The notes under the pieces: model-generated
Told to the model about the DNA's origin: nothing
What the model saw: only the letters and a program-made list of their open reading frames with translations
The model's database searches: none
NCBI GenBank assembly: GCA_965261595.1
Contig: CBDHDG010000007.1
Span: 480,001-544,000 of the forward strand
DNA from: a bacterium
Lineage (GTDB): Bacteria; UBA8248; JACPRG01; G963555815
Length of the DNA stretch: 64,000 nucleotides
Direction of reading: 5' to 3'
Position numbers and translations under genes: made by a program
Shown: in pieces, positions 4,353-31,044 of the stretch
How positions within the stretch are numbered: position 1 is the first letter of the stretch
Layout: every line of letters begins with the position of its first letter

Positions 4353-4694
4353 TTGAAAATTGACGGGGCTACCTCCGTTTAGAGCAGTTGAGTCTTGCAA
4401 AACAGAACGTCGGATCACCGAAGCGAAGTAGATTCTGCATGAACGCGGTACGGCAATAGGGGGGCGAGACAGCCATCATAACGGTTTGGAAAGATCTCCT
4501 TATCTGCCTAACCGGGATTTCTCACCAATCCGAAGAGCCGAGTCGGCGATCTTCCAGGAAACTCATTGAGGGACAATGACTTGCATGAACAGAGGGTCTT
4601 GGCGAGTCACTGACAGGGTGTGCCTGAGGAAGGGGAGGGATCGAACGGCTCGAAGCTCGTTGGACTGTTTGTTGGTGATTCAACCTGCGAGCGT

Positions 4695-8406: not shown

Positions 8407-9861
8407 ATGGAACGCGCCGGATTGGCGGCAATGACCGATCTGAGAGACTGGCTCGACGTGGTGGAGGATCTGGGCGAGCTGAAGACGGTCCGGGGGGCGC
8501 ACTGGAACCTGGAGATCGGCGCCCTCTCCGAGGCCAATTACAAACAATCGAAGAGCCCGGCGCTGCTGTTCGATGAGATCCCGGATCACCCCCCGGGCTT
8601 CCGCGTCCTGACGGGCGCGTCGGGCTCCCCCCCCCGCCTGGGCGTCGCGCTGCGCATGGGAAGCGGTTTCACCAACGCGGAGCTTGTCAAGGCCCTCCGC
8701 GGCAAGCCCATCGAGTGGGAGAGCACTGCCCCGAACTTCCCCCCCGAGGTTCTGCCGGACGGCCCCGTGAAAGAGAACGTCCTCCTGGGCGGCCAGGTGG
8801 ACCTGTCGCGCTTCCCCACGCCTTTCTGGCACAAGCACGACGGGGGACGCTACATCGGGACGGGGGACGCCGTCCTCATCAAAGACCCCGAAACCGGCGT
8901 CGTCAACCTGGGCGCCTACCGGGTGATGGTTCTCGACGAGCGCCACGTGTCCGTGATGATCATCCCGGGCAAGCACGGGATGCAGTACGCCCGAAAATGG
9001 TTCGCCCGCGGGGAGCGGTGCCCGGTGGCCATCTCGGTCGGCCACGACCCCCTCCTGGCCATCCTTTTGGGCATAGAGATCCCCACCGGCGTGAGCGAGC
9101 TCAACTACGCGGGGGCGATCATCGGGGGCCGATATCCGGTGGTGGAGGGGGAGGTGACGGGACTCCCTATCCCGGCCGCGAGCGAGATCGTTCTGGAAGG
9201 CTGGCTGGAAGAGGGGAAGACGACGACCGAAGGGCCTTACGGCGAATGGCACGGGTACTACTCGGGCGGCGAATATCCGGCCTTCCGGGTCGAAGTCGAG
9301 GCCGTTCTCCACCGCGACGATCCCATCCTCCTGGGCTCCCCGCCCGGAAAGCCGCCCCACGATTACTCCTACTTCCGGTCGGTGATGAAGTCGGCGCTGA
9401 TCTTCGACTCCCTGGTCAAGGCCGGTGTTCCGGCGGTCCAGGGCGTGTGGTGCGACGAGGCGGGCGGGGGCCGGCTTTGGATCAACGTCTCCATCAAGCA
9501 GCAGTTCCTGGGTCACGCGCGAATGGCCGGGTTCGTCGCCTCGCAATGCCACGCCGGGGCGTATATGGGGCGGTACGTCGTGGTGGTGGACGAGGACATC
9601 GATCCCACCGACATCCATGAAGTCATCTGGGCCATGTGCACCCGCTCCGATCCGGCCGGCGATATCGAGATCATCCGCCGGGCCTGGGGCAGCCCCGCCG
9701 ACCCGCTGAACCCCGACAAGAAGACGCCGAAAAGCTCGCGGGGCATCATCGACGCCTGCCGGCCCTACGAGTGGATGGACGAATTCCCCCGCGTCGCCGC
9801 CGCCGACCCGGAGGACCTCCAGGCGATACGGGAAAAGTTTCCGGAGGTTTTCGGGGATTAG
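8407..9861 (+). CDS. UbiD-family decarboxylase, second copy
   Basis: DLRDWL, ALLFDEI, NLGAYR, EGPYGEWHGYY, VVVDEDIDP..WAMCTR. Confidence 0.92.
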   Translation: MERAGLAAMTDLRDWLDVVEDLGELKTVRGAHWNLEIGALSEANYKQSKSPALLFDEIPDHPPGFRVLTGASGSPPRLGVALRMGSGFTNAELVKALRGKPIEWESTAPNFPPEVLPDGPVKENVLLGGQVDLSRFPTPFWHKHDGGRYIGTGDAVLIKDPETGVVNLGAYRVMVLDERHVSVMIIPGKHGMQYARKWFARGERCPVAISVGHDPLLAILLGIEIPTGVSELNYAGAIIGGRYPVVEGEVTGLPIPAASEIVLEGWLEEGKTTTEGPYGEWHGYYSGGEYPAFRVEVEAVLHRDDPILLGSPPGKPPHDYSYFRSVMKSALIFDSLVKAGVPAVQGVWCDEAGGGRLWINVSIKQQFLGHARMAGFVASQCHAGAYMGRYVVVVDEDIDPTDIHEVIWAMCTRSDPAGDIEIIRRAWGSPADPLNPDKKTPKSSRGIIDACRPYEWMDEFPRVAAADPEDLQAIREKFPEVFGD

Positions 9862-9964: not shown

Positions 9965-11188
9965 GTGATCGCGTCACTCCTCCCCCCCGGACTGCAAGGC
10001 TCGGGACTGAAGGCGCTCGCGTGGGGGTCGGCGGGGGCCGCGGCCGGGGTGCTTCTGTGGCTCATCCCGACGATCCGGATCTCGGGATTGGGTCCCGCCT
10101 GGGACATGATGATCGTCCTGGCCGCGCGCCAACCCCGGGTTTTTTCCAGCGTGGGACAGGGACCGTTTCCGTCCGCGGCCGTCCTCGCGGCCCTGGGCCT
10201 CTGGGCGGCGTTACGGATCGGCCGGACATCCTGGCGGCCGTGGCGGCCCGCTTTGGCGCTCCTCGTCGCGGCCGGGTGCGGGGTCGGCGTCTCGCTGGTG
10301 GCCTTCCCGAAGCTGCTGACGTTGCTTTCGGAGGCGGGACTGCGCGGGCTTGCCGCCCAGGTCGTCGCGGCGCTCCCCCTCAGCGTGATCCTCGTGAGCG
10401 TCTGGACCCGGGAGGCGGTCCCCGGACGCCGGGTTGCGGCGGCCTTCATCGGATGGCAGGCGCTGTTTCAGGTCTTCCAGATCTACCCGGTTGCCGGGAC
10501 GCAGATGGTCTATGCGACGCCCCTCGTCGTCCTCCTGGCCGGCGCGCTTACGTATGCGCTGCTGGATCGACGCAAGCTGCCCGAGAAAAACCGGCGGCCT
10601 CTCAATCTTCCGGTGTCCCGCTCGATCGCCGAGCTGGTGTTCCCGGCGGCGACGCTCGCCTTCCTGCTGCCGTTCCTGGGCCTGGGGGTGATTCCCCTGG
10701 CGAAGGAGCGCCAAAAGGGAATCCCCCTGTCCGCGCCGTCCGCCGCGGGGGTCCGGTTTCAATCGGAGATCGCCCCCAAATTGGAGGCCCTGATCCGGTA
10801 TCTCCGGAGACGCACGGCGCCGGGCGAGCCGATTTTCACCATGCCGGGAATGTCGAGCATCTACATCTGGACGGGAAGGCCGAGCGTCACCCGCTATAAC
10901 GCCACGACCTGGGGTTTGCTGACGCCGGAGATGCAGGAGAGCATCGTCGAGAGGCTGCCGCGCGTCCGCTTTCTGGTGGTGAACCGCAAGTCGCTTTTCT
11001 GGAAGAGCACGGTTCAGCCTGTACGGCTCGCCGGAGAGGGATCGACCCGGTTGCGGGACCGGGTTTTCCGGGACTACGCCCCTCTTCCGCCCGGAGACTG
11101 GCTCGGACCGGGGGCTTCGGACGAAGACCCGGATTTTGAAATCTGGGTTCGGCGAAAAGGCGCGCCGGCCGGACCGCCGCCGTCCTGA
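9965..11188 (+). CDS. putative polytopic membrane protein (possibly 5'-truncated GT-C-like)
   Basis: Several hydrophobic segments then a soluble C-terminal part (TAPGEPIF..IYIWTGR); start uncertain. Confidence 0.55.
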   Translation: MIASLLPPGLQGSGLKALAWGSAGAAAGVLLWLIPTIRISGLGPAWDMMIVLAARQPRVFSSVGQGPFPSAAVLAALGLWAALRIGRTSWRPWRPALALLVAAGCGVGVSLVAFPKLLTLLSEAGLRGLAAQVVAALPLSVILVSVWTREAVPGRRVAAAFIGWQALFQVFQIYPVAGTQMVYATPLVVLLAGALTYALLDRRKLPEKNRRPLNLPVSRSIAELVFPAATLAFLLPFLGLGVIPLAKERQKGIPLSAPSAAGVRFQSEIAPKLEALIRYLRRRTAPGEPIFTMPGMSSIYIWTGRPSVTRYNATTWGLLTPEMQESIVERLPRVRFLVVNRKSLFWKSTVQPVRLAGEGSTRLRDRVFRDYAPLPPGDWLGPGASDEDPDFEIWVRRKGAPAGPPPS

Positions 11189-11225
11189 CCCGAGGTTTTC
11201 GCAAAGAGAAGAGTCTACGGGGAAA

Positions 11226-11723
11226 TCACGCGGTTGGATCGGGGGGCGCGGCGATGTCCCAGTCGCCGAAGTCCTTGAAGACGGCTTCGGCCCTTTCCTC
11301 CAGGACCCCGCGGATGACCTTCACATTCATGCCCGTCAGCCCGACGAGCCGTTCGATGGTGTAGTCCCCCAGGTCATACCGCCCGTTGGAGCAGCGCCGC
11401 AGGGCCTCGGGTCCCGCGCCGATGACGACGGTTCCGACGCCGGAGTAGATGGCGGCGCCGGCGCACATGGGACAGGGGTCGCAGTTGGCGTACAGGACGC
11501 AGCCTCGCATGTCCCCCGAGCGCATCTTCTTCGCCGCCTCCCGGATCGCCATCATCTCCGCGTGGCACGTGGGATCCTTCAGGGAGATGCCGACGCTTTT
11601 CCCCCGGCCGAGGACCTCGCCGTCCTTGACGATGACGCCCCCGTAAGGCAGGTGCCCCTCCTTCACGCCGTCCTCCGCTTCCTGAATGGCCAGGGCCATG
11701 AATTTTTCGTGATCGCCGCTCAC
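11226..11723 (-). CDS. nucleoside/nucleobase deaminase (CDA/TadA/guanine deaminase fold), copy D1
   Basis: DPTCHAE and PCPMC Zn motifs; GGAG RBS, GTG start. Confidence 0.92.
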   Translation of the reverse strand: MSGDHEKFMALAIQEAEDGVKEGHLPYGGVIVKDGEVLGRGKSVGISLKDPTCHAEMMAIREAAKKMRSGDMRGCVLYANCDPCPMCAGAAIYSGVGTVVIGAGPEALRRCSNGRYDLGDYTIERLVGLTGMNVKVIRGVLEERAEAVFKDFGDWDIAAPPDPTA

Positions 11724-11880
11724 GGGGATGCTCCTGTCTTCGCTGTCCGATGTTTTGGAACCGGATAGATCCGCGTGGGTGTCATGTTTCTCATGCGTCC
11801 TTAAGTCTTTGGGCCGGGCAGGATGCCCGGCCTACCGATCGGGTTGCGAGTTGGCGCCGGGCAAGATGCCCGGCCTGCCG
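11724..11880. repeat. conserved deaminase leader plus two REP palindromes (unit 1)
   Basis: 11724-11829 matches 13177-13282 with 6 mismatches in 106 bp; similar to 12425-12580. Confidence 0.9.
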
Positions 11881-11923
11881 GCCGGTGGACAAGCGGTGTT
11901 TTCAAAACAGGCAGGGCGAGGCG

Positions 11924-12424
11924 CTATTCCGACCGGAGGACATTGGGCGAGGCGTCGCCCCAGTCCTTGTACTCCCGGAAGACGGCCTCGGCTTCCTCTT
12001 CCAGCACCCCGTTGACGACCTCCAGGTCCAGGCCGATCAGCTCGACGACGCGCTCGATGGTGTAATCGTTCATGTCGTAAATCGCTCCGGATTCGCGCTT
12101 GAGGGCGGCCGGGCTCGCGCCGATGACGATGGTCCCCGCCCCGGACCAAAGCGTGGCGCCGGCGCACATGGGACAGGGGTGGCACGAGGTGTAGAGGGTG
12201 CACCCGGTCAATTTTGGGGTCTTGAGGTTGGCCGCCGCGTCGCGGATGGCCGAGGTCTCCGCGTGGGCCGTGGGGTCTCCGGTGGAGTTGACGATGTTGC
12301 GGCCCCGGCCCACGACCTCTCCGTCCCGGACGATGACCGACCCGAAGGGCCGCTCTCCGCTCCGGACGGCGGCGCGGGATTCCTCGATGGCCAGGGCCAT
12401 GAACTTCTCGTGGTCGACGCTCAT
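11924..12424 (-). CDS. nucleoside/nucleobase deaminase, copy D2
   Basis: True start MSVDHEKF at 12424 (GGAG RBS); DPTAHAE, PCPMC. Confidence 0.92.
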   Translation of the reverse strand: MSVDHEKFMALAIEESRAAVRSGERPFGSVIVRDGEVVGRGRNIVNSTGDPTAHAETSAIRDAAANLKTPKLTGCTLYTSCHPCPMCAGATLWSGAGTIVIGASPAALKRESGAIYDMNDYTIERVVELIGLDLEVVNGVLEEEAEAVFREYKDWGDASPNVLRSE

Positions 12425-12580
12425 GGGGATTCTCCTGTTTCCGGTGGTCGATGTTTTGGAACCGGGTGGATCCGAAGGGGTGTCATGTTTCTCATACGCC
12501 CTTACACTTTGGGCCGGGCAGGATGCCCGGCCTACCGAATCGGGGTGCGAGTTGGCGCCGGGCAGGATGCCCGGCCTACC
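12425..12580. repeat. conserved deaminase leader plus two REP palindromes (unit 2)
   Basis: Homologous to 11724-11880. Confidence 0.88.
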
Positions 12581-13176
12581 GGGCCGTGTACGGGCTGACT
12601 CTTCCAATATCCGGTAGGGCGGGCAGCGGGTCGGTTGACCCCTTGCCCGCCCGGATACGACGCGCGTAAGCCTTTCACGATCATTGATAAATTGCGCGGA
12701 CAGCACCCTATCTCCTTGGACCAGCCGAATTCTTCCAGGACTTTCTTGGCCTCGGTCTCCAAAATCCCCCGGATGACCTCGAGTGTCATGTTCATCTGTT
12801 CGCTGAGGCCTTCGGCCGTGTAAGTTCTCGGGGTTCGATTGGAGATGCGCGCCAGGGCGGCGGAGCGGGCCCCTACGACGAGGGTGTCGATGCCGGAAAA
12901 GAGTATGGCGCCGCAGCACATCGGGCAGGGGTCGCACGAGGTGTAGAGGGTGCAGCCCTTCAGGGACAGGCTTTTCAGGTTCGCCGCCGCGTCGCGAATG
13001 GCCATCACCTCCGCGTGCGCCGTCGGGTCCCCGGTCGAGCGGGGATTGGCGTATGCGCGCCCGACGACCTCCCCGTCCCGGACGACGACGGACCCGAAGG
13101 GCCGGTCGCCCGCCCGGAGCCCGGCCCGCGACTCCTCGACGGCCAGGGCCATGAACTTCTCGTGGTCGACGCTCAT
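12532..13176 (-). CDS. nucleoside/nucleobase deaminase, copy D3 (ancestral stop at 12708-12710 out of frame; C-terminal read-through)
   Basis: MSVDHEKF start at 13176; DPTAHAE, PCPMC; one extra base before the TAG relative to D4. Confidence 0.88.
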   Translation of the reverse strand: MSVDHEKFMALAVEESRAGLRAGDRPFGSVVVRDGEVVGRAYANPRSTGDPTAHAEVMAIRDAAANLKSLSLKGCTLYTSCDPCPMCCGAILFSGIDTLVVGARSAALARISNRTPRTYTAEGLSEQMNMTLEVIRGILETEAKKVLEEFGWSKEIGCCPRNLSMIVKGLRASYPGGQGVNRPAARPTGYWKSQPVHGPVGRASCPAPTRTPIR

Positions 13177-13351
13177 GGGGATTCTCCTGTCTTCGCTGCC
13201 CGATGTCTTGGAACCGGATAGATCCGAGGGGGTGTCATGTTTCTCATGCGTCCTTAAGTCTTTGGGCCGGGCAAGATGCCCGCCCGGATACGACGCGCGT
13301 AAGTCTTTCACGGCCATCTGTAGAGCGTCGCCTCCCAGCGCGGACAGCACC
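13177..13351. repeat. conserved deaminase leader (unit 3) plus 3' block shared with 12645-12710
   Basis: Leader nearly identical to unit 1; TGCCCGCCCGGATACGACGCGCGTAAG and GCGGACAGCACCCTA also occur downstream of D3. Confidence 0.88.
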
Positions 13352-13819
13352 CTACAATGTGGACCAGTCGAATTTCGCCAGGACCTCCTCGGCCTCGGTT
13401 TGCAAAACCCCCCGGATGACCTCGAGCTTCATGTGCATCTGCCCGGCGAGGTTCTCGGCGGAGTAGGTCCTCGGGGATTGGCCCCGGATCTCCGCCAGTT
13501 TCGCGGAGCGCGCGCCTATGACCAGCCGCTCGATGCCGGAAAACAGCGTCGCCCCGCAGCACATCGGGCAGGGGTCGCACGAGGTGTAGAGGGTGCACTC
13601 CTTCCAGTCGGAACCCTTCAGGTTGGCTGAAGCGTCGCGAACGGCGGACGTTTCCGCGTGGGTCGTCGGGTCCCCGGAGGAGTTGACGGTGTTGTAGGCC
13701 CGGCCGACGACCTCCCCGTTGCGGACGATGACCGAGCCGAAAGGCTGCTCTCCCTTCTGTAGTCCCTTGCGCGCCTCCTCGATAGCCATCGCCAGGAATT
13801 TTTCGTGCCCGTCGCTCAT
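13352..13819 (-). CDS. nucleoside/nucleobase deaminase, copy D4
   Basis: NTVNSSGDPTTHAE, PCPMC; 15 bp downstream of the LLM gene with GGGAGG RBS. Confidence 0.92.
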   Translation of the reverse strand: MSDGHEKFLAMAIEEARKGLQKGEQPFGSVIVRNGEVVGRAYNTVNSSGDPTTHAETSAVRDASANLKGSDWKECTLYTSCDPCPMCCGATLFSGIERLVIGARSAKLAEIRGQSPRTYSAENLAGQMHMKLEVIRGVLQTEAEEVLAKFDWSTL

Positions 13820-13834
13820 GAAAATCGCCCTCCC

Positions 13835-14851
13835 TTATGGGTTGGATGCGAGCCCATCGGCCAAAAGCCGCAGGGCCTTTTTCCTCTCTTCCGCCGTCCC
13901 GCGCAAGGCCAGGACGGGGACCTCGAGACCCGCATCGATGAACTCCGTGATTCGGTCCGCCGCCATCTCGGGCGTTCCGGTGACGCTGTACGCGTGGACG
14001 ACCTCCTCGGGGATGAGCCGCCGGATCGCCTCCCGGTCCTCTTTAACGAAGGCGTCGTTGATGGCGTCCAGGTCCAGTTTCGCCCCGCTGACTTCGTGGC
14101 TCGCCTTGAGGGCCGGGTTCCGGAGGAGGTAGGCGAGACCGGCCTGACTGGCCGCAAGCGCCTCTTCATACGTCTCGAAGATCGAGGTCACGATCAGCCC
14201 CGCGACCAGGAAGCCGTTCCCGGCGCCGCCCCCCCCGCCGCCGTCCCGCTTCCTTCGGCCCTTTTCGACCTGCTCCAGCACCCACTGAATGTAAGGCGCG
14301 GAGACCCCGGCGGAAAGGACGACGCCGTCGGCCGCCTCCCCGGCGAGCCGACACATCTTCGGTCCCACGGCCGCCAGGTAGATGGGAATTCTCGCCTCCG
14401 GGAGGTCGAAATCGATGTGAGCGCCGTAAAGGTTCAGCGTCTCGCCGCGAAACTCGACGCGCTGCCGGCCGGCGTCCCAGAGCCGCCGGGTGGCGGTGAT
14501 CATCTCTCGCATGGAGGCGAGGGGTTTCTTGGGCGACAGACCCATCTCGGCCATGACGTTCGGGTTGCCCGTCCCGGCGCACAGCGCGATCCGGCCCGGT
14601 GCGCACTCGGCCAGGGTGGCGACGCCCATGGCCCAGTAGAGGGGGTGGGCGACGTAGGGGCTGAGGGCGGTGGGGACGACCCGCACGTGTTTCGTCGCGC
14701 CGAGGAAGGCGACGGAGGTCGAGACCGCGTCCCGGTAGCCCAGGTGCTGGTCCGCCCAGACGGAGTGGAACCCCGCCGCGTCGGCGACTTGGCACATCTC
14801 CACCATGTCCGAAATGGGAATGCGGCCGTCGAGGTCGATGCCGAGTTTCAT
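13835..14851 (-). CDS. LLM-class (luciferase-like/Mer-like) flavin-dependent oxidoreductase
   Basis: AGFHSVWADQH, ATKHVRV, PGRIALCAGTG, IPIYLAAVGPKM.RLAGE.ADG. Confidence 0.9.
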   Translation of the reverse strand: MKLGIDLDGRIPISDMVEMCQVADAAGFHSVWADQHLGYRDAVSTSVAFLGATKHVRVVPTALSPYVAHPLYWAMGVATLAECAPGRIALCAGTGNPNVMAEMGLSPKKPLASMREMITATRRLWDAGRQRVEFRGETLNLYGAHIDFDLPEARIPIYLAAVGPKMCRLAGEAADGVVLSAGVSAPYIQWVLEQVEKGRRKRDGGGGGGAGNGFLVAGLIVTSIFETYEEALAASQAGLAYLLRNPALKASHEVSGAKLDLDAINDAFVKEDREAIRRLIPEEVVHAYSVTGTPEMAADRITEFIDAGLEVPVLALRGTAEERKKALRLLADGLASNP

Positions 14852-14959
14852 AAACCGCCCTGATTGGAATCGGGGTGAGCGCCGTCGCTTAGTGTAACGC
14901 CCTTCTTCCAATCGCGAAAGGACGGGTTTTCGGGTGGGTCCGTCGCGGTGGAACCCCGT

Positions 14960-15445
14960 TCATCCCCGTTGTCCGCTCATGCGCCAGGTCATCAACGCGC
15001 CGAGGGTGAGGAAGGCGATTTGTCTGAGGGCTTCCGTCGGCCGCCCTTTAACGGATATTTGGGGCGTCCAGGAAATCAGCCCTTCCAAAGACGGATTGAG
15101 CTCCCGGGCTGAAAAGCGAATGATTTGCGCGTCCCGCAGGAAATCCAATCCGGACGCGGAAACCGATCCTCGCACGATGGGGATGATCGGCCTTTTGTCG
15201 GACGCGAATTCGACCTCCTGACGAACAAGGTCCGATTGGGACCCCTGATTCGAGATCAACGCCAGGACGCACCCGGACTCCAGAATCCGCTCGCGGACTA
15301 TTTTCGGAAGGGATCGGGCCGCTTTCAGGGGCCGGTCCTCATGCGCAATGAGGGGTCTTTGCCCGCCCAATTGAAGCTGTGACGCGATGAACCGAACGAC
15401 GTCGATGTCACCCGGCCTATTACTGATGAAGATCGTAAACGGCAT
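14960..15445 (-). CDS. TIR-domain protein with short hydrophobic C-terminus
   Basis: IFIS..., ILESGCVLALIS, S.LVRQEVEFA (putative catalytic Glu), RPIIPI; GGAGAGG RBS before ATG 15445. Confidence 0.75.
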   Translation of the reverse strand: MPFTIFISNRPGDIDVVRFIASQLQLGGQRPLIAHEDRPLKAARSLPKIVRERILESGCVLALISNQGSQSDLVRQEVEFASDKRPIIPIVRGSVSASGLDFLRDAQIIRFSARELNPSLEGLISWTPQISVKGRPTEALRQIAFLTLGALMTWRMSGQRG

Positions 15446-15599
15446 TGCGCCCTCTCCGCGCGAACTGAACGAACGGATGCCAAAGTTTATCCATTTACAT
15501 TTCGGCGGAAAAGGTAAAGGACTTAATCGTTGATTTTTGCCGCCCCTTGCCGCGGCCCCGGGGTTTTGGCGTAACGGCCGTGGAGATGGTAGAATCGGA

Positions 15600-15839
15600 A
15601 TCGGCCTGAACATCAAGAATGAAGCGACCTGCCGTTTGGCCGAGGAGTTCGTGCGTTTGACCGGCGAGACCAAGACCAAGGCGATGGAGAAACGTTTGGA
15701 TCGCCAGTTCCAAGGGCGGAACCGCGCGGGCGTTGCCGAGTGGTTGATGGAAATCGGTCGGCGCTGCGCGTCCCAGCCGACGCTCGATACCTGGACGCCC
15801 GAAGGAATTCTTTACGACAAGCATGGTTTGCCCAAATGA
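15600..15839 (+). pseudogene. vapB: VapB-type antitoxin (Rv0623/PSK transcription factor family), start codon decayed
   Basis: (I)GLNIKNEATCRLAEE..LTGETKT...LYDKHGLPK; ATC where ATG is expected; ATGA overlap with the next gene. Confidence 0.75.
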
Positions 15840-16142: not shown

Positions 16143-16195
16143 GCCGGAGTGGACCGCCCCTGGGTTATTGGACACTCGGGTGAGGGTATTCGACC

Positions 16196-17104
16196 TCATG
16201 CGGCCTCCGCAACTTGAGCGAGTTTTTCCTGCCTTGCCTGGGCCGGCGTTCGGTAGCCGTAGCCCTCGAGAATCCAATGATGGTTGTACAGGTTCTTGAA
16301 CTCAAGCAGCGCCCACCGCAGTTCCTCTACGGTGGCGAAAGAGCGCACCCACAGGAGATTCTCCTTCAAGATGCGGATAAACCACTCACAGTAGCCATTT
16401 CCCTCGGGCGCCCGCACGAAGCTGGGCGAACTGGTCATGCCCAGGTAGGCGATCTCCCGCTGAAAGTCATCGGACAGATAGGCGGGGCCGTGGTCGTGAC
16501 GAACTTTAAGCCCCTCGGCGACATCCGCCTCCAAGCCGGCGAAGCGCTCGGCGACCCCCTGCCGGATCGGCTCCAGGGCCTCGAAGCGGTTGCCGCTCTT
16601 GGCCGCATGGATCCCCACGCAGTCCACCGAGCAGTGATCCACCGCCACGAACACCGAGGCCATCCCCTCCTCGGTGGTCACCGTCGTCGTCATGTCCGTG
16701 CCCCACATTCGGTCGGGCCGCTCGGTGCGGATGGTCCCGTTGTGGGCCTTGGGACCTCGGGGTTTGCCCACCCGGTGGGGGGCCTGAAGCCCCGCCTCCC
16801 GCATCAGGCGACGCACCCGCTCCTTGCTGGTGCGGATGCCCGCGAAGCGCAGCCTCGCCCACACCTTGCGGTAGCCCTCGCCATGGAAGGGAGAGTCCTC
16901 CAGGACCTGCCGGATGTGGCCGAGGAGTTCCGCATCGGTGCACGGGCCCACAGGGCCGCGCTTATTGGGCGTGGGGCGTTCATGAACGGGGACCGCCTCT
17001 CGCCGCCGTTGCGCGTAGACCGTGGAGCGCGCCAAGCCCCAAAGGGCGCACACCCGCTTCAGGCCGTAGGCTCTGCCCGTGGAGGTGAAGCGGGCCTGAC
17101 TCAT
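16196..17104 (-). CDS. ISa OrfB DDE transposase
   Basis: WGTD, HDHG, GNGYCE rve-core motifs; ATGA overlap with OrfA. Confidence 0.9.
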   Translation of the reverse strand: MSQARFTSTGRAYGLKRVCALWGLARSTVYAQRRREAVPVHERPTPNKRGPVGPCTDAELLGHIRQVLEDSPFHGEGYRKVWARLRFAGIRTSKERVRRLMREAGLQAPHRVGKPRGPKAHNGTIRTERPDRMWGTDMTTTVTTEEGMASVFVAVDHCSVDCVGIHAAKSGNRFEALEPIRQGVAERFAGLEADVAEGLKVRHDHGPAYLSDDFQREIAYLGMTSSPSFVRAPEGNGYCEWFIRILKENLLWVRSFATVEELRWALLEFKNLYNHHWILEGYGYRTPAQARQEKLAQVAEAA

Positions 17105-17487
17105 CGCCTCCACCTCCTGCCGGCTAAAGGGCGGCCGGCCTCCAGGCGGTCGATCTTCTCCCGCAGGACCTCGCCCTCCATCGTGAGTTCGCCCACCTTG
17201 GCCTTGAGCCGGGCGTTCTCCTCGTCCCGCTCATCCGCCGGGCGGGCTTTGAGCGCCGCCTCGCCCCCGCGAAGGAACGCCTCGCGCCAGGCGGAAAGCC
17301 GAGCCGCTGTCGTGCCCAACTCGCGGCAGAGCGTCTCCAGGCTCTCGCCCCGCAAAAGACGCAGGACCGCCTCCCGCTTGCGCTGGCAGGAGAACCGACC
17401 CCGCTCACTGCGATGCCCTGGGGCCTTGGCTCCGTTCGCCCTGCGGGCGCCCTCCGCCAAAGCCCCCTCTTGCTTTTGTTCGTTCAT
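17101..17487 (-). CDS. ISa OrfA (HTH/coiled coil)
   Basis: RKREAVLRLLRGESLETLCRELG HTH; LKAKVGELTM. Confidence 0.88.
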   Translation of the reverse strand: MNEQKQEGALAEGARRANGAKAPGHRSERGRFSCQRKREAVLRLLRGESLETLCRELGTTAARLSAWREAFLRGGEAALKARPADERDEENARLKAKVGELTMEGEVLREKIDRLEAGRPLAGRRWRR

Positions 17488-17553
17488 CGCGACACCCCTT
17501 TCTCCATGAATCATGGATCAATCGAGTGTCCAACAAAACCCTAGAGCGGGGGA

Positions 17554-28673: not shown

Positions 28674-29006
28674 GGCTGGCGCCACCTCCTATCGAAAATC
28701 GGATTCTTCGGGGAAGCCGTTGTTTGTTAGAAGCATCCGCATGTGAAGGCGCTCTTCGCCCCCCTGGAAAGTCAACGGTGACGGTCGGGGGAGCCACGGC
28801 CGGGAATTCGGCCGAAAACCGCCGCCGGGACACGCTCAAGAAATCCGTATTCCCCGAATTTTTCAGGGCAGCGTTTCAGGCGTGACCGTCCAGGCGATGC
28901 GCCATACCTGTTCCGTGAGGCCGCCCGCGTTCGGCGTCCCTCCCCCGCTCTAGGGTTTTGTTGGACACTCGATTGATCCATGATTCATGGAGAAAGGGGT
29001 GTCGCG

Positions 29007-29393
29007 ATGAACGAACAAAAGCAAGAGGGGGCTTTGGCGGAGGGCGCCCGCAGGGCGAACGGAGCCAAGGCCCCAGGGCATCGCAGTGAGCGGGGTCGGT
29101 TCTCCTGCCAGCGCAAGCGGGAGGCGGTCCTGCGTCTTTTGCGGGGCGAGAGCCTGGAGACGCTCTGCCGCGAGTTGGGCACGACAGCGGCTCGGCTTTC
29201 CGCCTGGCGCGAGGCGTTCCTTCGCGGGGGCGAGGCGGCGCTCAAAGCCCGCCCGGCGGATGAGCGGGACGAGGAGAACGCCCGGCTCAAGGCCAAGGTG
29301 GGCGAACTCACGATGGAGGGCGAGGTCCTGCGGGAGAAGATCGACCGCCTGGAGGCCGGCCGCCCTTTAGCCGGCAGGAGGTGGAGGCGATGA
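29007..29393 (+). CDS. ISa OrfA
   Basis: As in the other copies. Confidence 0.88.
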   Translation: MNEQKQEGALAEGARRANGAKAPGHRSERGRFSCQRKREAVLRLLRGESLETLCRELGTTAARLSAWREAFLRGGEAALKARPADERDEENARLKAKVGELTMEGEVLREKIDRLEAGRPLAGRRWRR

Positions 29394-30298
29394 GTCAGGC
29401 CCGCTTCACCTCCACGGGCAGAGCCTACGGCCTGAAGCGGGTGTGCGCCCTTTGGGGCTTGGCGCGCTCCACGGTCTACGCGCAACGGCGGCGAGAGGCG
29501 GTCCCCGTTCATGAACGCCCCACGCCCAATAAGCGCGGCCCTGTGGGCCCGTGCACCGATGCGGAACTCCTCGGCCACATCCGGCAGGTCCTGGAGGACT
29601 CTCCCTTCCATGGCGAGGGCTACCGCAAGGTGTGGGCGAGGCTGCGCTTCGCGGGCATCCGCACCAGCAAGGAGCGGGTGCGTCGCCTGATGCGGGAGGC
29701 GGGGCTTCAGGCCCCCCACCGGGTGGGCAAACCCCGAGGTCCCAAGGCCCACAACGGGACCATCCGCACCGAGCGGCCCGACCGAATGTGGGGCACGGAC
29801 ATGACGACGACGGTGACCACCGAGGAGGGGGTGGCCTCGGTGTTCGTGGCGGTGGATCACTGCTCGGTGGACTGCGTGGGGATCCATGCGGCCAAGAGCG
29901 GCAACCGCTTCGAGGCCCTGGAGCCGATCCGGCAGGGGGTCGCCGAGCGCTTCGCCGGCTTGGAGGCGGACGTCGCCGAGGGGCTTAAAGTTCGTCACGA
30001 CCACGGCCCCGCCTATCTGTCCGATGACTTTCAGCGGGAGATCGCCTACCTGGGCATGACCAGTTCGCCCAGCTTCGTGCGGGCGCCCGAGGGAAATGGC
30101 TACTGTGAGTGGTTTATCCGCATCTTGAAGGAGAATCTCCTGTGGGTGCGCTCTTTCGCCACCGTAGAGGAACTGCGGTGGGCGCTGCTTGAGTTCAAAA
30201 ACCTGTACAACCATCATTGGATTCTCGAGGGCTACGGCTACCGAACGCCGGCCCAGGCAAGGCAGGAAAAACTCGCTCAAGTTGCGGAGGCCGCATGA
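29390..30298 (+). CDS. ISa OrfB DDE transposase
   Basis: As in the other copies. Confidence 0.9.
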   Translation: MSQARFTSTGRAYGLKRVCALWGLARSTVYAQRRREAVPVHERPTPNKRGPVGPCTDAELLGHIRQVLEDSPFHGEGYRKVWARLRFAGIRTSKERVRRLMREAGLQAPHRVGKPRGPKAHNGTIRTERPDRMWGTDMTTTVTTEEGVASVFVAVDHCSVDCVGIHAAKSGNRFEALEPIRQGVAERFAGLEADVAEGLKVRHDHGPAYLSDDFQREIAYLGMTSSPSFVRAPEGNGYCEWFIRILKENLLWVRSFATVEELRWALLEFKNLYNHHWILEGYGYRTPAQARQEKLAQVAEAA

Positions 30299-31044
30299 GG
30301 TCGAATACCCTCACCCGAGTGTCCAATAACCCAGGGGCGGTCCATCCCCTCCAGGCAAACCGCCGCCGCTTCCCGAAATGCGACAATCTCCCGCTCTGGA
30401 TTTCCAACAACCAGCAAGGCCGCCAGCCTGCCCAGAAACGGCAAATGCCCCACGATCATCAGCCCCCCCGTCTCTCCCCCGAGTTCATCGGCCAAGGGTT
30501 CGACGGGATCCATCGGACTGAGCCCGGATCGCTCCCGGACGCCTTCCCCGGAGATGACCGACCCGGCCAGGACCCCGGCCGTCTGGGCCGCCCGGAGCTT
30601 TTCACTGTGCGAGATGGAGCGCACGGAGATCCCGAGGGGCTTCAGGAATCGCGTAATCTTCTCCGCCTGTTCTTTCCCCCGGGCAGACAGCGGCCTCGCG
30701 GGGTCCGCCTCTTCGGAAACGGCCGCGCCGTGCCGGACCAGATAAAGACGCATGACTCACCTCCGCCCGCGATGACCGCGAGCGCGATAAAGTTGATCCC
30801 CGACCAGAGGCGCTCCGGCGACGGCCGTTTGAAAGAACCCCATGATATTCTATTCCGAATCCGGGTTCAAAATGAACCGGCCGTCCCGCGCGATATGTCT
30901 TCGGCCCGAAGCCCCGCGGGGGAGAAGAAAGGCGCTTTCTCGAAAGTCGCTGGATGGAAACGCCCGTCCATTTACAATACACTGTTCGAAAGAATCATTT
31001 CCAGAACACCCGTCGATCCATGGAATGAATTGGAGGATTGAGCA

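Follow-up and report, generated by a model that had tools for sequence, protein, structure and literature searches.

A young, genus-restricted REP-plus-leader module, probably homogenised by recombination within an old row of deaminase paralogs

Introduction

The window analysed here—a stretch of 64,000 nucleotides from contig CBDHDG010000007.1 of the bacterial assembly GCA_965261595.1—carries on its minus strand four tandem genes for CDA-fold deaminases, D1 to D4. Three of these (D1, D2 and D3) are each preceded by a REP palindrome and an 87–88-nt non-coding leader, D3's REP being a hybrid half-REP. A first-pass annotation of this DNA had pointed out that the REP-inclusive leaders of D1 (11724–11829) and D3 (13177–13282) are far more alike than the genes that they precede, and its coordinates and counts proved correct: blastn aligns the two leaders at 94.34% identity over 106 nt, with 0 gaps and 6 differences, whereas the coding sequences share 63.6% of their nucleotides.

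How, then, can the spacers of a tandem array resemble one another more closely than its genes, when—as that annotation rightly reasoned—an old duplication should erode spacers first? Two kinds of answer had been proposed: that the leader is a selected cis-element (a structured RNA, operator or promoter) or that it is a recombination module, homogenised or used to add cassettes. We compared genes, leaders and flanking repeats within the window's own genome (G000), among related genomes and metagenome contigs and in independent sequencing runs, and find that the spacers are alike despite the old duplication because the genes are far older than the spacer.

Results

The gene row is headed by a luciferase-like oxidoreductase gene (LLM class, F420-type; 13835..14911, on the minus strand, like all features given below unless stated otherwise; PF00296, E 4.1e-52), the product of which matches NCBIfam LLM/F420 families under their cut-offs. 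D4 (13352..13819; 155 aa, PF00383) starts about 18 nt past the stop of this upstream gene and has no comparable leader in front of it. There follow D3 (12532..13176), an open frame of 214 aa with a PF00383 match and a deaminase core that ends at about 12721, D2 (11924..12424; 166 aa; PF00383, E 9.8e-27) and D1 (11226..11723; 165 aa, GTG start; PF00383, E 3.9e-25). The D3 stop seen in the related metagenome contig L057 is displaced in G000, so that the D3 frame continues through the spacer and its REPs; runs X6 and X15 show a variant with a 1-nt deletion within this frame, at 12711. The solved structures closest to the deaminases are guanine deaminase 1wkq, guanosine deaminase and TadA. A scan of the immediate neighbours of the array—an IS3 transposase, a UbiD-family decarboxylase and the LLM gene—found no integrase among them.

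The deaminase paralogs show dS values of 0.51–0.77 and amino-acid identities of 44–66%, with D1 and D3 standing at 49.7% amino-acid identity and a dS of 0.68 over 155 aligned codons. In the coding tree, D1 and its orthologs in genomes G001, G006 and G004 form one clade (support 100/99), D2 joins G006_c and G004_c (89/88) and D4 joins the orthologs of the sister genus g4, represented by G006 and G004 (89/86). In the sister genus, the LLM gene is likewise followed by genes of the D4, D2 and D1 types, which keep the same succession relative to one another, and the LLM gene precedes the deaminases in G001, G006, G004, G003 and L057. The paralogs are, on this evidence, old. A separate model, in which D3 is a recent unequal-crossover chimera of a D2 5′ part and a D4 3′ part, was rejected as far as a recent origin is concerned: D3 is only 69% identical in nucleotides to D2 and 74% to D4, and the presence of a D3 ortholog in L057 also counters it.

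The leaders tell another story. Measured from REP to start codon, the D1 leader (11724..11811) and the D3 leader (13177..13264; an identical copy occurs in metagenome contig L056) are each 88 nt long and differ at 5 of 88 positions (94.3% identity), while identity in the D1/D3 coding alignment, scanned in 375 sliding windows of 88 nt, never rises above 72.7%. The D2 leader (12425..12511; 87 nt) is, as described earlier, a third and more diverged copy, with 15/87 differences from D1 and 13/87 from D3 (84.9% and 85.7% identity by blastn). The shared motifs reported before were likewise recovered: a REP at the start (the hybrid half-REP in D3), CATG-N5-CATG (TATG-N5-CATG in D2), CGGATCTATCCG (CGGATCCACCCG in D2) and a ribosome-binding site, which reads AGGAG in all three leaders. 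Between D2 and D3, the first 36 coding nucleotides are identical (36/36), against a mean coding identity of 68%.

Each leader adjoins a REP at its 5′ end. Pattern matches place a REP doublet upstream of the D1 leader (11812..11875; REPs at 11812–11832 and 11855–11875, with a 22-nt spacer), a second doublet with the same type of spacer upstream of the D2 leader (12512..12576; REPs at 12512–12532 and 12556–12576) and, upstream of the D3 leader, the hybrid half-REP GGGCGGGCATCTTGCCCGGCC (13265..13285), in which the downstream hairpin arm of D4 is fused to a REP. Beyond the hybrid lies flankA, the 3′ flank of D4 (13286..13351), with 2/66 substitutions relative to L057 and 7/66 relative to G001. 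A diverged copy, flankA′ (12653..12720; 18/63 substitutions relative to the D4 flank), follows the D4-like end of D3, and downstream of D3 there is also a GC-rich hairpin, read from the sequence (12617..12652; 9-bp outer stem GGGCGGGCA/TGCCCGCCC, without a T-run), homologues of which follow D4 in L057 and G001. Behind D3 of G000 there stands a copy of the complete D4-type 3′ flank, joined at the stop codon.

The REP itself is a GC-rich 21-nt palindrome with many dispersed copies: its pattern, allowing up to 2 mismatches, matches 62 times in G000 (3 times for the reversed control) and 33 times in G001. A Y1_Tnp gene (G000:C7:1197215-1197496; 47.3 bits, over the cut-off) has REPs on both sides, at 1196914, 1197054 and 1197588. 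The 22–23-nt spacer of the REP doublets occurs in both the D3–D2 and the D2–D1 spacers of G000; its motif has 10 matches in the genome, and lies between REPs only at these two loci and their two copies on contig C5. In G001 and L057, each leader-bearing spacer holds one REP. The 87–88-nt post-REP leader does not belong to the dispersed family, being confined genome-wide to the three array sites and three C5 copies, and its 5′ half has no other blastn match in its own genome.

Among relatives, searches recovered the leader nowhere outside the window's own genus: it is present in G000, G001 and metagenome contigs L056 and L057. Across 41 genomes of the class, real matches were restricted to G000 and G001, the next best having an E value of 0.033 over 23 nt. 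A leader pattern that demands an exact match at 22 specified bases, and that more diverged copies could therefore escape, hit only a G001 contig among the genome contigs and two contigs among the metagenome contigs. The idea that the leader might stand before other genes was not borne out: blastn of its own genome and the search of relatives placed it only before these deaminases and only in one genus. G006 and G004, which have the LLM gene and four orthologous deaminases, carry short, unrelated spacers without the leader (by eye, 45, 158 and 49 nt in G006 and ~28–49 nt in G004), and the 62-nt spacer of G003 lacks it too.

Within the genus, the unit content of the array differs between the close relatives G000, G001 and L057. 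G001 has no D3. In L057, the contig of which holds no D1, D2 is preceded only by a 48-nt spacer, which corresponds by homology to the 3′ portion of the leader; this short spacer may be ancestral, or else a deletion. Only the last ~40 nt of the leader, the AGGAG site included, are common to the short spacer of a relative. Joints in the public runs that skip 709 nt (11918>12628; X1 and X6) and 675 nt (12588>13264; X6) might mark haplotypes that lack D2 or D3; with only 24 and 22 nt on the shorter side, they were not counted.

A comparison of leaders across genomes bears on the origin of the likeness. The D3 leader of G000, so close to the D1 leader of the same genome, differs from its own ortholog in L057 at 12 of 87 positions and by one gap, although the D3 coding sequences of G000 and L057 are 92.4% identical. 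In the quartet G000_D1, G000_D3, G001_D1 and L057_D3, derived states are shared within a genome: all four informative leader columns group by genome and none by locus, the four comprising three substitutions and one indel in two clusters and possibly reflecting only two mutational events. The REP doublet with its distinctive spacer, present twice in the array of G000 where G001 and L057 show single REPs, is another state shared within a genome. Start codon and coding sequence, unlike the leader, group by locus. Adjacent segments are therefore discordant—coding sequence follows locus, leader follows genome—with homology at the ends of the tract. These comparisons, which draw on six leader copies, few and closely related, support homogenisation of the leader between paralogs within a genome. 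On this reading, it is the recent coalescence of its copies, at most ~17% apart against a saturated synonymous divergence of the genes, that makes the leader look better conserved than the genes.

Orthologous leaders were also compared between species. Substitutions number 5/87 for D1, 14/87 for D2 and 12/87 for D3, alongside pS values of 0.099, 0.183 and 0.155 for the matching ortholog genes and 6/100, 3/37, 2/47 and 7/66 differences in neighbouring non-coding DNA. Leader divergence is thus about that of synonymous and neighbouring non-coding sites, near neutral, in a test weakened by a D3 ortholog distance that the presumed conversion would inflate. The D1 ortholog leaders fall slightly below neutral (5/87 against a pS of 0.099), and the blocks TGAGA.ACATGACACCC and CGGATC.A.CCGGTTCCAA are unchanged in all six leader copies; given so few close sequences, there may be moderate constraint on these invariant blocks.

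Discussion

We consider it likely that REP and leader together form a young intergenic module, confined to one genus, in an old, operon-like row of paralogs, spread and homogenised by non-allelic homologous recombination rather than conserved as an RNA or operator. Neighbouring units would exchange by ectopic gene conversion or unequal crossover, with the REP palindrome, or else the paralogous 3′ gene ends and flanks, as the upstream anchor and the conserved first ~36 nt of coding sequence (MSxDHEKFMALA) as the downstream anchor. The intervening 87–88 nt would be carried along as passengers, and copying probably ran from the D1 type into D3.

The alternative that survives best, though we hold it to be unlikely, is that the leader is a selected cis-element, acting as promoter or operator, as a 5′ UTR bound by protein or, together with the REP hairpin, as a signal for processing or stability, through which every deaminase would come under the same control, and that conversion merely helps its copies to stay alike. 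The invariant blocks in all six copies would suit such an element, as would the presence of the leader before all three downstream deaminase genes of G000 (D1–D3) and the fact that in every copy a strong AGGAG ribosome-binding site accompanies the REP hairpin. Contigs from RNA libraries also run over the leaders (X15 record 14, 13161–13330; X16 record 22, 13244–13426; X16 record 18, 11791–11977), and the leaders probably belong to transcripts; however, these contigs cross the ends of upstream genes, which fits read-through rather than a start within the leader, and some may be DNA carry-over. Other observations also tell against the element. An Rfam search of 10500–15500 gave 14 matches at E values up to 10, all of them on REP hairpins and under the gathering score, the best (21.4 bits against a required 39) falling on the REP. 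None of 36 consensus pairs showed a compensatory change, and the RNAalifold covariation term was +1.03, in an alignment of six close sequences with low power. Fold z-scores of −0.4 to −3.6 were driven by the REP and the start-codon hairpin. No sigma-70-like promoter was predicted in 11100–15100, and a terminator scan returned a single terminator-like site, which lies on the plus strand within D1 coding sequence; shuffled sequence gave 3.4 such sites on average. The leader is, moreover, missing from the orthologous arrays of sister genera and, in its full form, from D2 of L057, and it diverges between species about as fast as neutral sites. Of the two answers first proposed, homogenisation is accordingly the one upheld, by the grouping of leaders by genome and by the differing unit content of close relatives, while a selected RNA, operator or promoter is disfavoured by the want of Rfam matches, covarying pairs and promoters, by restriction to one genus and by near-neutral divergence.

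A mixed reading seems to us decidedly improbable: that the REP-plus-leader is a selected modular expression cassette, in which the REP hairpin terminates or shields the message of the gene before it and is followed by a standard 5′ UTR, perhaps including a coupled upstream frame of 24 codons, the whole having been retrofitted onto one paralog after another by REP-anchored recombination. If true, it would place anciently diverged enzymes under identical post-transcriptional control in one genus.

That upstream frame has also been weighed by itself. The leader could be read as a 24-codon uORF (ATG AGA AAC ATG ...), the TGA of which overlaps the deaminase start (ATGA or GTGA), so that a leader peptide and the deaminase would be translated in a coupled fashion. 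As read from the alignment, the frame is open in all six copies and always ends at the overlapping TGA; the CATG-N5-CATG motif supplies two in-frame ATG codons, and AAGGA stands 3 nt ahead of the first ATG in most copies. Yet about 12 of about 15 in-frame changes, by our own count on the alignment, alter the peptide, which gives no sign of peptide constraint, and on this substitution pattern a conserved peptide was rejected. The first ATG is CTG in G001_D2, the TGA is imposed by the Met-Ser start of every deaminase, and an open frame of 24 codons would, by our own rough estimate, arise by chance about one time in three. We regard the coupling uORF as very unlikely.

An autonomous mobile or cassette-forming element—integron attC-like, or a REP moved by a Y1 transposase—that inserts before genes or recruits cassettes is extremely unlikely. 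The dispersal of the REP family, the REPs flanking the Y1_Tnp gene and the varying number of units among relatives are what such an element might leave behind; the non-REP part of the leader, however, occurs only before these deaminases, at three sites and their C5 duplicate, and the deaminase genes, far from being unrelated cassettes, are paralogs of long standing that the sister genus also has behind its LLM gene. The copies, moreover, have flanks in common past the REP and are joined within coding-sequence homology, which is what recombination would predict.

Assembly or polishing of collapsed or cross-polished repeats, raised earlier as a source of the identity and conceivable in a very repeat-rich genome with 178 near-full IS copies and the entire locus present twice (on C7 and C5, at 99.95% identity), can be dismissed almost entirely, given that the three distinct leader versions each recur with 0 differences inside contigs of independent public runs X1, X6 and X15 (X1 records 1, 3, 6 and 7 cover all three leaders, X6 records 24 and 26 cover D1 and D2, and RNA-library contig X15 record 14, 13161–13330, covers D3), that metagenome contig L056 has the identical D3 leader and that the independently assembled G001 and L057 carry the same kind of leader.

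Recombination within the genus being the reading that we prefer, the locus offers a bacterial case in which non-coding DNA appears more conserved than coding DNA through recent copying, not constraint, and a caution for regulatory-RNA scans that compare paralogous leaders. It indicates that recombination can homogenise an intergenic module while the flanking enzyme genes remain anciently diverged, and suggests that dispersed REPs, together with the conserved 5′ ends of coding sequences, probably anchor the exchange. The case opens no new kind of system, and its features can be set against several known ones.

The purine riboswitch is an example of a structured 5′ leader of nucleobase-metabolism genes, and here too some 90 nt precede a nucleobase/nucleoside deaminase-like gene; unlike riboswitch leaders, these have no Rfam match and no covariation and are confined to one genus. 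Integron attC arrays share with this locus a repeat at each gene boundary, a row running in one direction and a varying number of units, but all four genes here are PF00383 paralogs with orthologs behind the same LLM gene rather than unrelated acquisitions, what repeats is a 5′ leader carrying a ribosome-binding site and the boundaries fall in coding-sequence homology. REP/BIME elements with Y1 (RAYT-type) transposases are found in operon intergenic regions of E. coli and Pseudomonas; the palindrome described here, 21 nt long and GC-rich, likewise lies between genes of one unit, sometimes as doublets, and is dispersed, with one Y1_Tnp gene flanked by REPs, but, unlike REP/BIME elements, it has attached to it an 87–88-nt leader that lies outside the dispersed family and is confined to this array.

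Concerted evolution provides the remaining comparison, the tufA/tufB genes of bacteria being a further example of it. As in concerted tandem arrays, copies within a genome are closer than orthologs, trees of adjacent segments are discordant and units are gained and lost by misaligned recombination. Published examples of ectopic gene conversion or unequal crossover in tandem arrays are those of Trypanosoma brucei (PMC1855330) and of HMA4 in Arabidopsis halleri (PMC3749932). The present array differs from such arrays in that homogenisation reaches no further than the intergenic module and the first ~36 nt of coding sequence, while the anciently diverged coding bodies stand at 44–66% amino-acid identity, and in that its upstream anchor would be a dispersed REP element.

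Results

The window carries a gene for an LLM class (luciferase-like) oxidoreductase (13835-14911, minus strand), followed on the same strand by four paralogous genes for CDA-fold deaminases: D4 (13352-13819), D3 (start at 13176), D2 (11924-12424) and D1 (11226-11723, with a GTG start). All four products match PF00383 (E 1e-25 to 1e-27), fall under the cut-offs of the NCBIfam families (TadA model: 78-85 bits, cut-off 150) and have guanine deaminase (1wkq), guanosine deaminase and TadA as their closest solved structures. The neighbourhood includes a UbiD-family decarboxylase gene (8407-9861, plus strand; TIGR00148 above cut-off) and an ORF of 239 aa (14960-15679, minus strand) with no NCBIfam match. 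On L056, a metagenome contig 98.6% identical to the window's genome (G000), the end of an upstream gene (2180-2579) resembles, by eye only, a molybdopterin (xanthine-dehydrogenase-type) subunit. The deaminase row may be part of N-heterocycle catabolism.

D4 starts ~18 nt past the oxidoreductase stop codon and lacks a leader. Upstream of each of D3, D2 and D1 lies a 21-nt REP palindrome, with a leader of 87-88 nt between it and the gene that ends in an AGGAG ribosome-binding site; the REP is doubled upstream of D2 and of D1, and a hybrid half-REP lies upstream of D3. The REP is a member of a dispersed family in G000, to which the leader proper does not belong. Beyond the window, palindromes of the same family (1196914-1197608) lie on either side of a Y1_Tnp (PF01797) gene (G000:C7:1197215-1197496), the layout expected for a REP-associated transposase; there are four more Y1_Tnp matches in the genome.

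As the first-pass annotation had claimed, the leaders are far more alike than the genes behind them. Those of D1 and D3 differ at 6 of 106 positions (REP part included) with no gaps, against 63.6% nucleotide identity, 49.7% amino-acid identity and a dS of 0.68 for the coding sequences, and none of 375 windows of 88 nt slid along the D1/D3 coding alignment exceeded 72.7% identity. Leader identity is 84.9% for D1/D2 and 85.7% for D2/D3, and divergence among all leader copies reaches ~17% at most, whereas synonymous sites are saturated between the genes downstream.

The genes are old. In the sister genus (G006, complete, and G004), the same oxidoreductase gene is followed by four deaminase genes on a single strand, and a maximum-likelihood tree places each of D1, D2 and D4 with an ortholog from that genus (support 100/99, 89/88 and 89/86); the paralogs therefore split before the genera did. 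D3, from G000 and from L057 (a metagenome contig ~92% identical to G000), branches within the half of the tree on the D4 side.

The leader is young. Sister-genus spacers, counted on the sequences, are short and unrelated to it (45, 158 and 49 nt in G006; ~28-49 nt in G004), and in G003, from a third genus, the spacer has 62 nt and lacks the leader. Among 41 genomes of the class, leader matches occurred only in G000 and G001, which belong to one genus (next best E 0.033 over 23 nt). An exact-pattern scan of 185,579 species genomes returned the G001 contig alone, and the same scan of a metagenome collection two contigs, L056 and L057. Within G000, the leader is confined to three array sites and their copies on another contig, C5. 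The check proposed earlier, whether the leader precedes other genes in the genome or in relatives, found it only in this genus and, within G000, only in this array.

The C5 copies reflect a second occurrence of the locus: window 1-16149 matches G000:C5:128160-146290 at 99.2-99.95% identity, the two copies being broken by different IS insertions. Across the array (window 10513-14874) only two positions differ, neither of them in a deaminase gene. Either the segment is genuinely duplicated, with IS copies as its bounds, or the assembly combines two strains (contamination 5.57%). An IS3-family element of ~1.4 kb (NCBIfam transpos_IS3) lies at 16150-17553 and 28941-30344; G000 has 178 near-full-length copies (99.0-100% identity) on all seven contigs, an unusually large and recent burst amounting to ~4% of the genome.

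Several patterns support one of the earlier proposals, that leaders are homogenised between units. The G000 D3 leader differs from the G000 D1 leader at 5 of 88 positions, but from its L057 ortholog at 12 of 87 plus one indel, the D3 coding sequences being 92.4% identical. For the quartet of G000 D1, G000 D3, G001 D1 and L057 D3, all four informative leader columns, comprising three substitutions and an indel that fall into two clusters, unite the G000 leaders and none unites orthologs; unlike the leader, start codons and coding sequences group by orthology. Both the D3-D2 and D2-D1 spacers of G000 carry a REP doublet with a common 22-23-nt spacer, a motif found between REPs in 4 of 10 hits (these two sites and their C5 copies only), and the leader-bearing spacers of G001 and L057 have a single REP. 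Over the first 36 coding nucleotides D2 and D3 do not differ at all, even at synonymous sites, compared with an average identity of 68% across their coding sequences. Behind D3, G000 has a duplicate of the D4 3' flank, joined at the stop codon.

Array content also varies. G001 has D4-D2-D1, without D3; in L057, where the order is D4-D3-D2, the spacer ahead of D2 is just 48 nt long and matches the 3' part of the leader, and the start of an IS3-type gene takes the place of D1. The L057 ortholog retains the D3 stop codon that G000 has lost: because one extra base before TAG displaces it, the G000 frame continues for ~55 more codons, across the spacer and two REPs (12532-12721, minus strand). In contigs from X6 and X15, two independent public runs, the loss of 1 nt at 12711 would terminate the frame earlier, and the tail seems accidental. 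Contigs from X6 and a further run, X1, contain joints (11918>12628 and 12588>13264) skipping 709 and 675 nt, about one unit each, with shorter sides of just 24 and 22 nt; such joints hint weakly at a population that includes haplotypes without D2 or without D3.

Discussion

Misaligned homologous recombination between adjacent units, by gene conversion or unequal crossover, is the probable source of these patterns. It would carry a spacer from one unit to another, anchored on one side by the REP or by paralogous 3' gene ends and on the other by the conserved 5' coding end, and would yield whole-unit deletions and duplications as by-products; the event, its anchors and its direction are read from sequence patterns, whereas the restricted range of the leader, the age of the paralogs, the sharing of derived states within a genome, unit turnover and near-neutral divergence are observed. 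In G006 (L052; G006:C1 ~4476-4633, minus strand) the second and third deaminases are separated by the 158-nt spacer, in which an in-frame piece of a deaminase C-terminus survives (LGVVRGVLQDEAEKVLEEYDRSKLQ...); this piece would represent a scar of unequal recombination in the sister-genus array as well.

Selection on the module for a function in regulation or processing, perhaps together with conversion, appears unlikely but is the next best reading. Single-sequence folds gave z-scores of -0.4 to -3.6, mostly due to the REP and to a hairpin predicted at the start codon (11694-11726, 12395-12427 and 13147-13179, minus strand), which pairs CCAUGAGC with GUUCAUGG ~20 nt downstream in all six leader-plus-CDS sequences; it may be incidental, since its sequence is fixed by the conserved N-terminus MSxDHEKFMA. 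In a consensus fold of the six copies the covariation term was positive, with compensatory change in none of 36 pairs, and an Rfam search yielded no family at gathering score, the best matches falling on REP hairpins. RNA-library contigs from one study connect the D3 leader with the 3' end of D4 and the D1 leader with the 3' end of D2, which fits read-through of a single message, though these are contigs and may include DNA carry-over; no sigma-70-like promoter was found in 11100-15100. The structured RNA and the promoter put forward in the first-pass annotation thus went unsupported. From one species to another the leader differs at 5/87, 14/87 and 12/87 positions—small numbers, with the D3 value inflated by the putative conversion—against synonymous differences of 0.099, 0.183 and 0.155 in adjoining genes and 6/100, 3/37, 2/47 and 7/66 in neighbouring non-coding stretches, so that no slowing of the leader relative to neutral sites can be measured.

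A translated upstream frame, a mobile cassette and an artefact share the small probability that is left. A frame of 24 codons, beginning at the first ATG in CATG-N5-CATG and ending at a TGA that overlaps the start codon, is uninterrupted in every copy, but most changes alter the peptide and one copy lacks the first ATG. Assembly error is contradicted by contigs from independent runs (X1 and X6; the RNA-library run X15 for the D3 leader), where each leader version recurs unchanged; the D3 leader in L056 is an identical copy.

In the features tested, the leader resembles neither a known structured RNA nor an integron-like cassette. The deaminase array shows the pattern of concerted evolution in tandem arrays, familiar from many systems, bacterial ones among them. 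What is particular to this array is that homogenisation is limited to the intergenic module and to the opening codons, while the enzyme bodies remain old.
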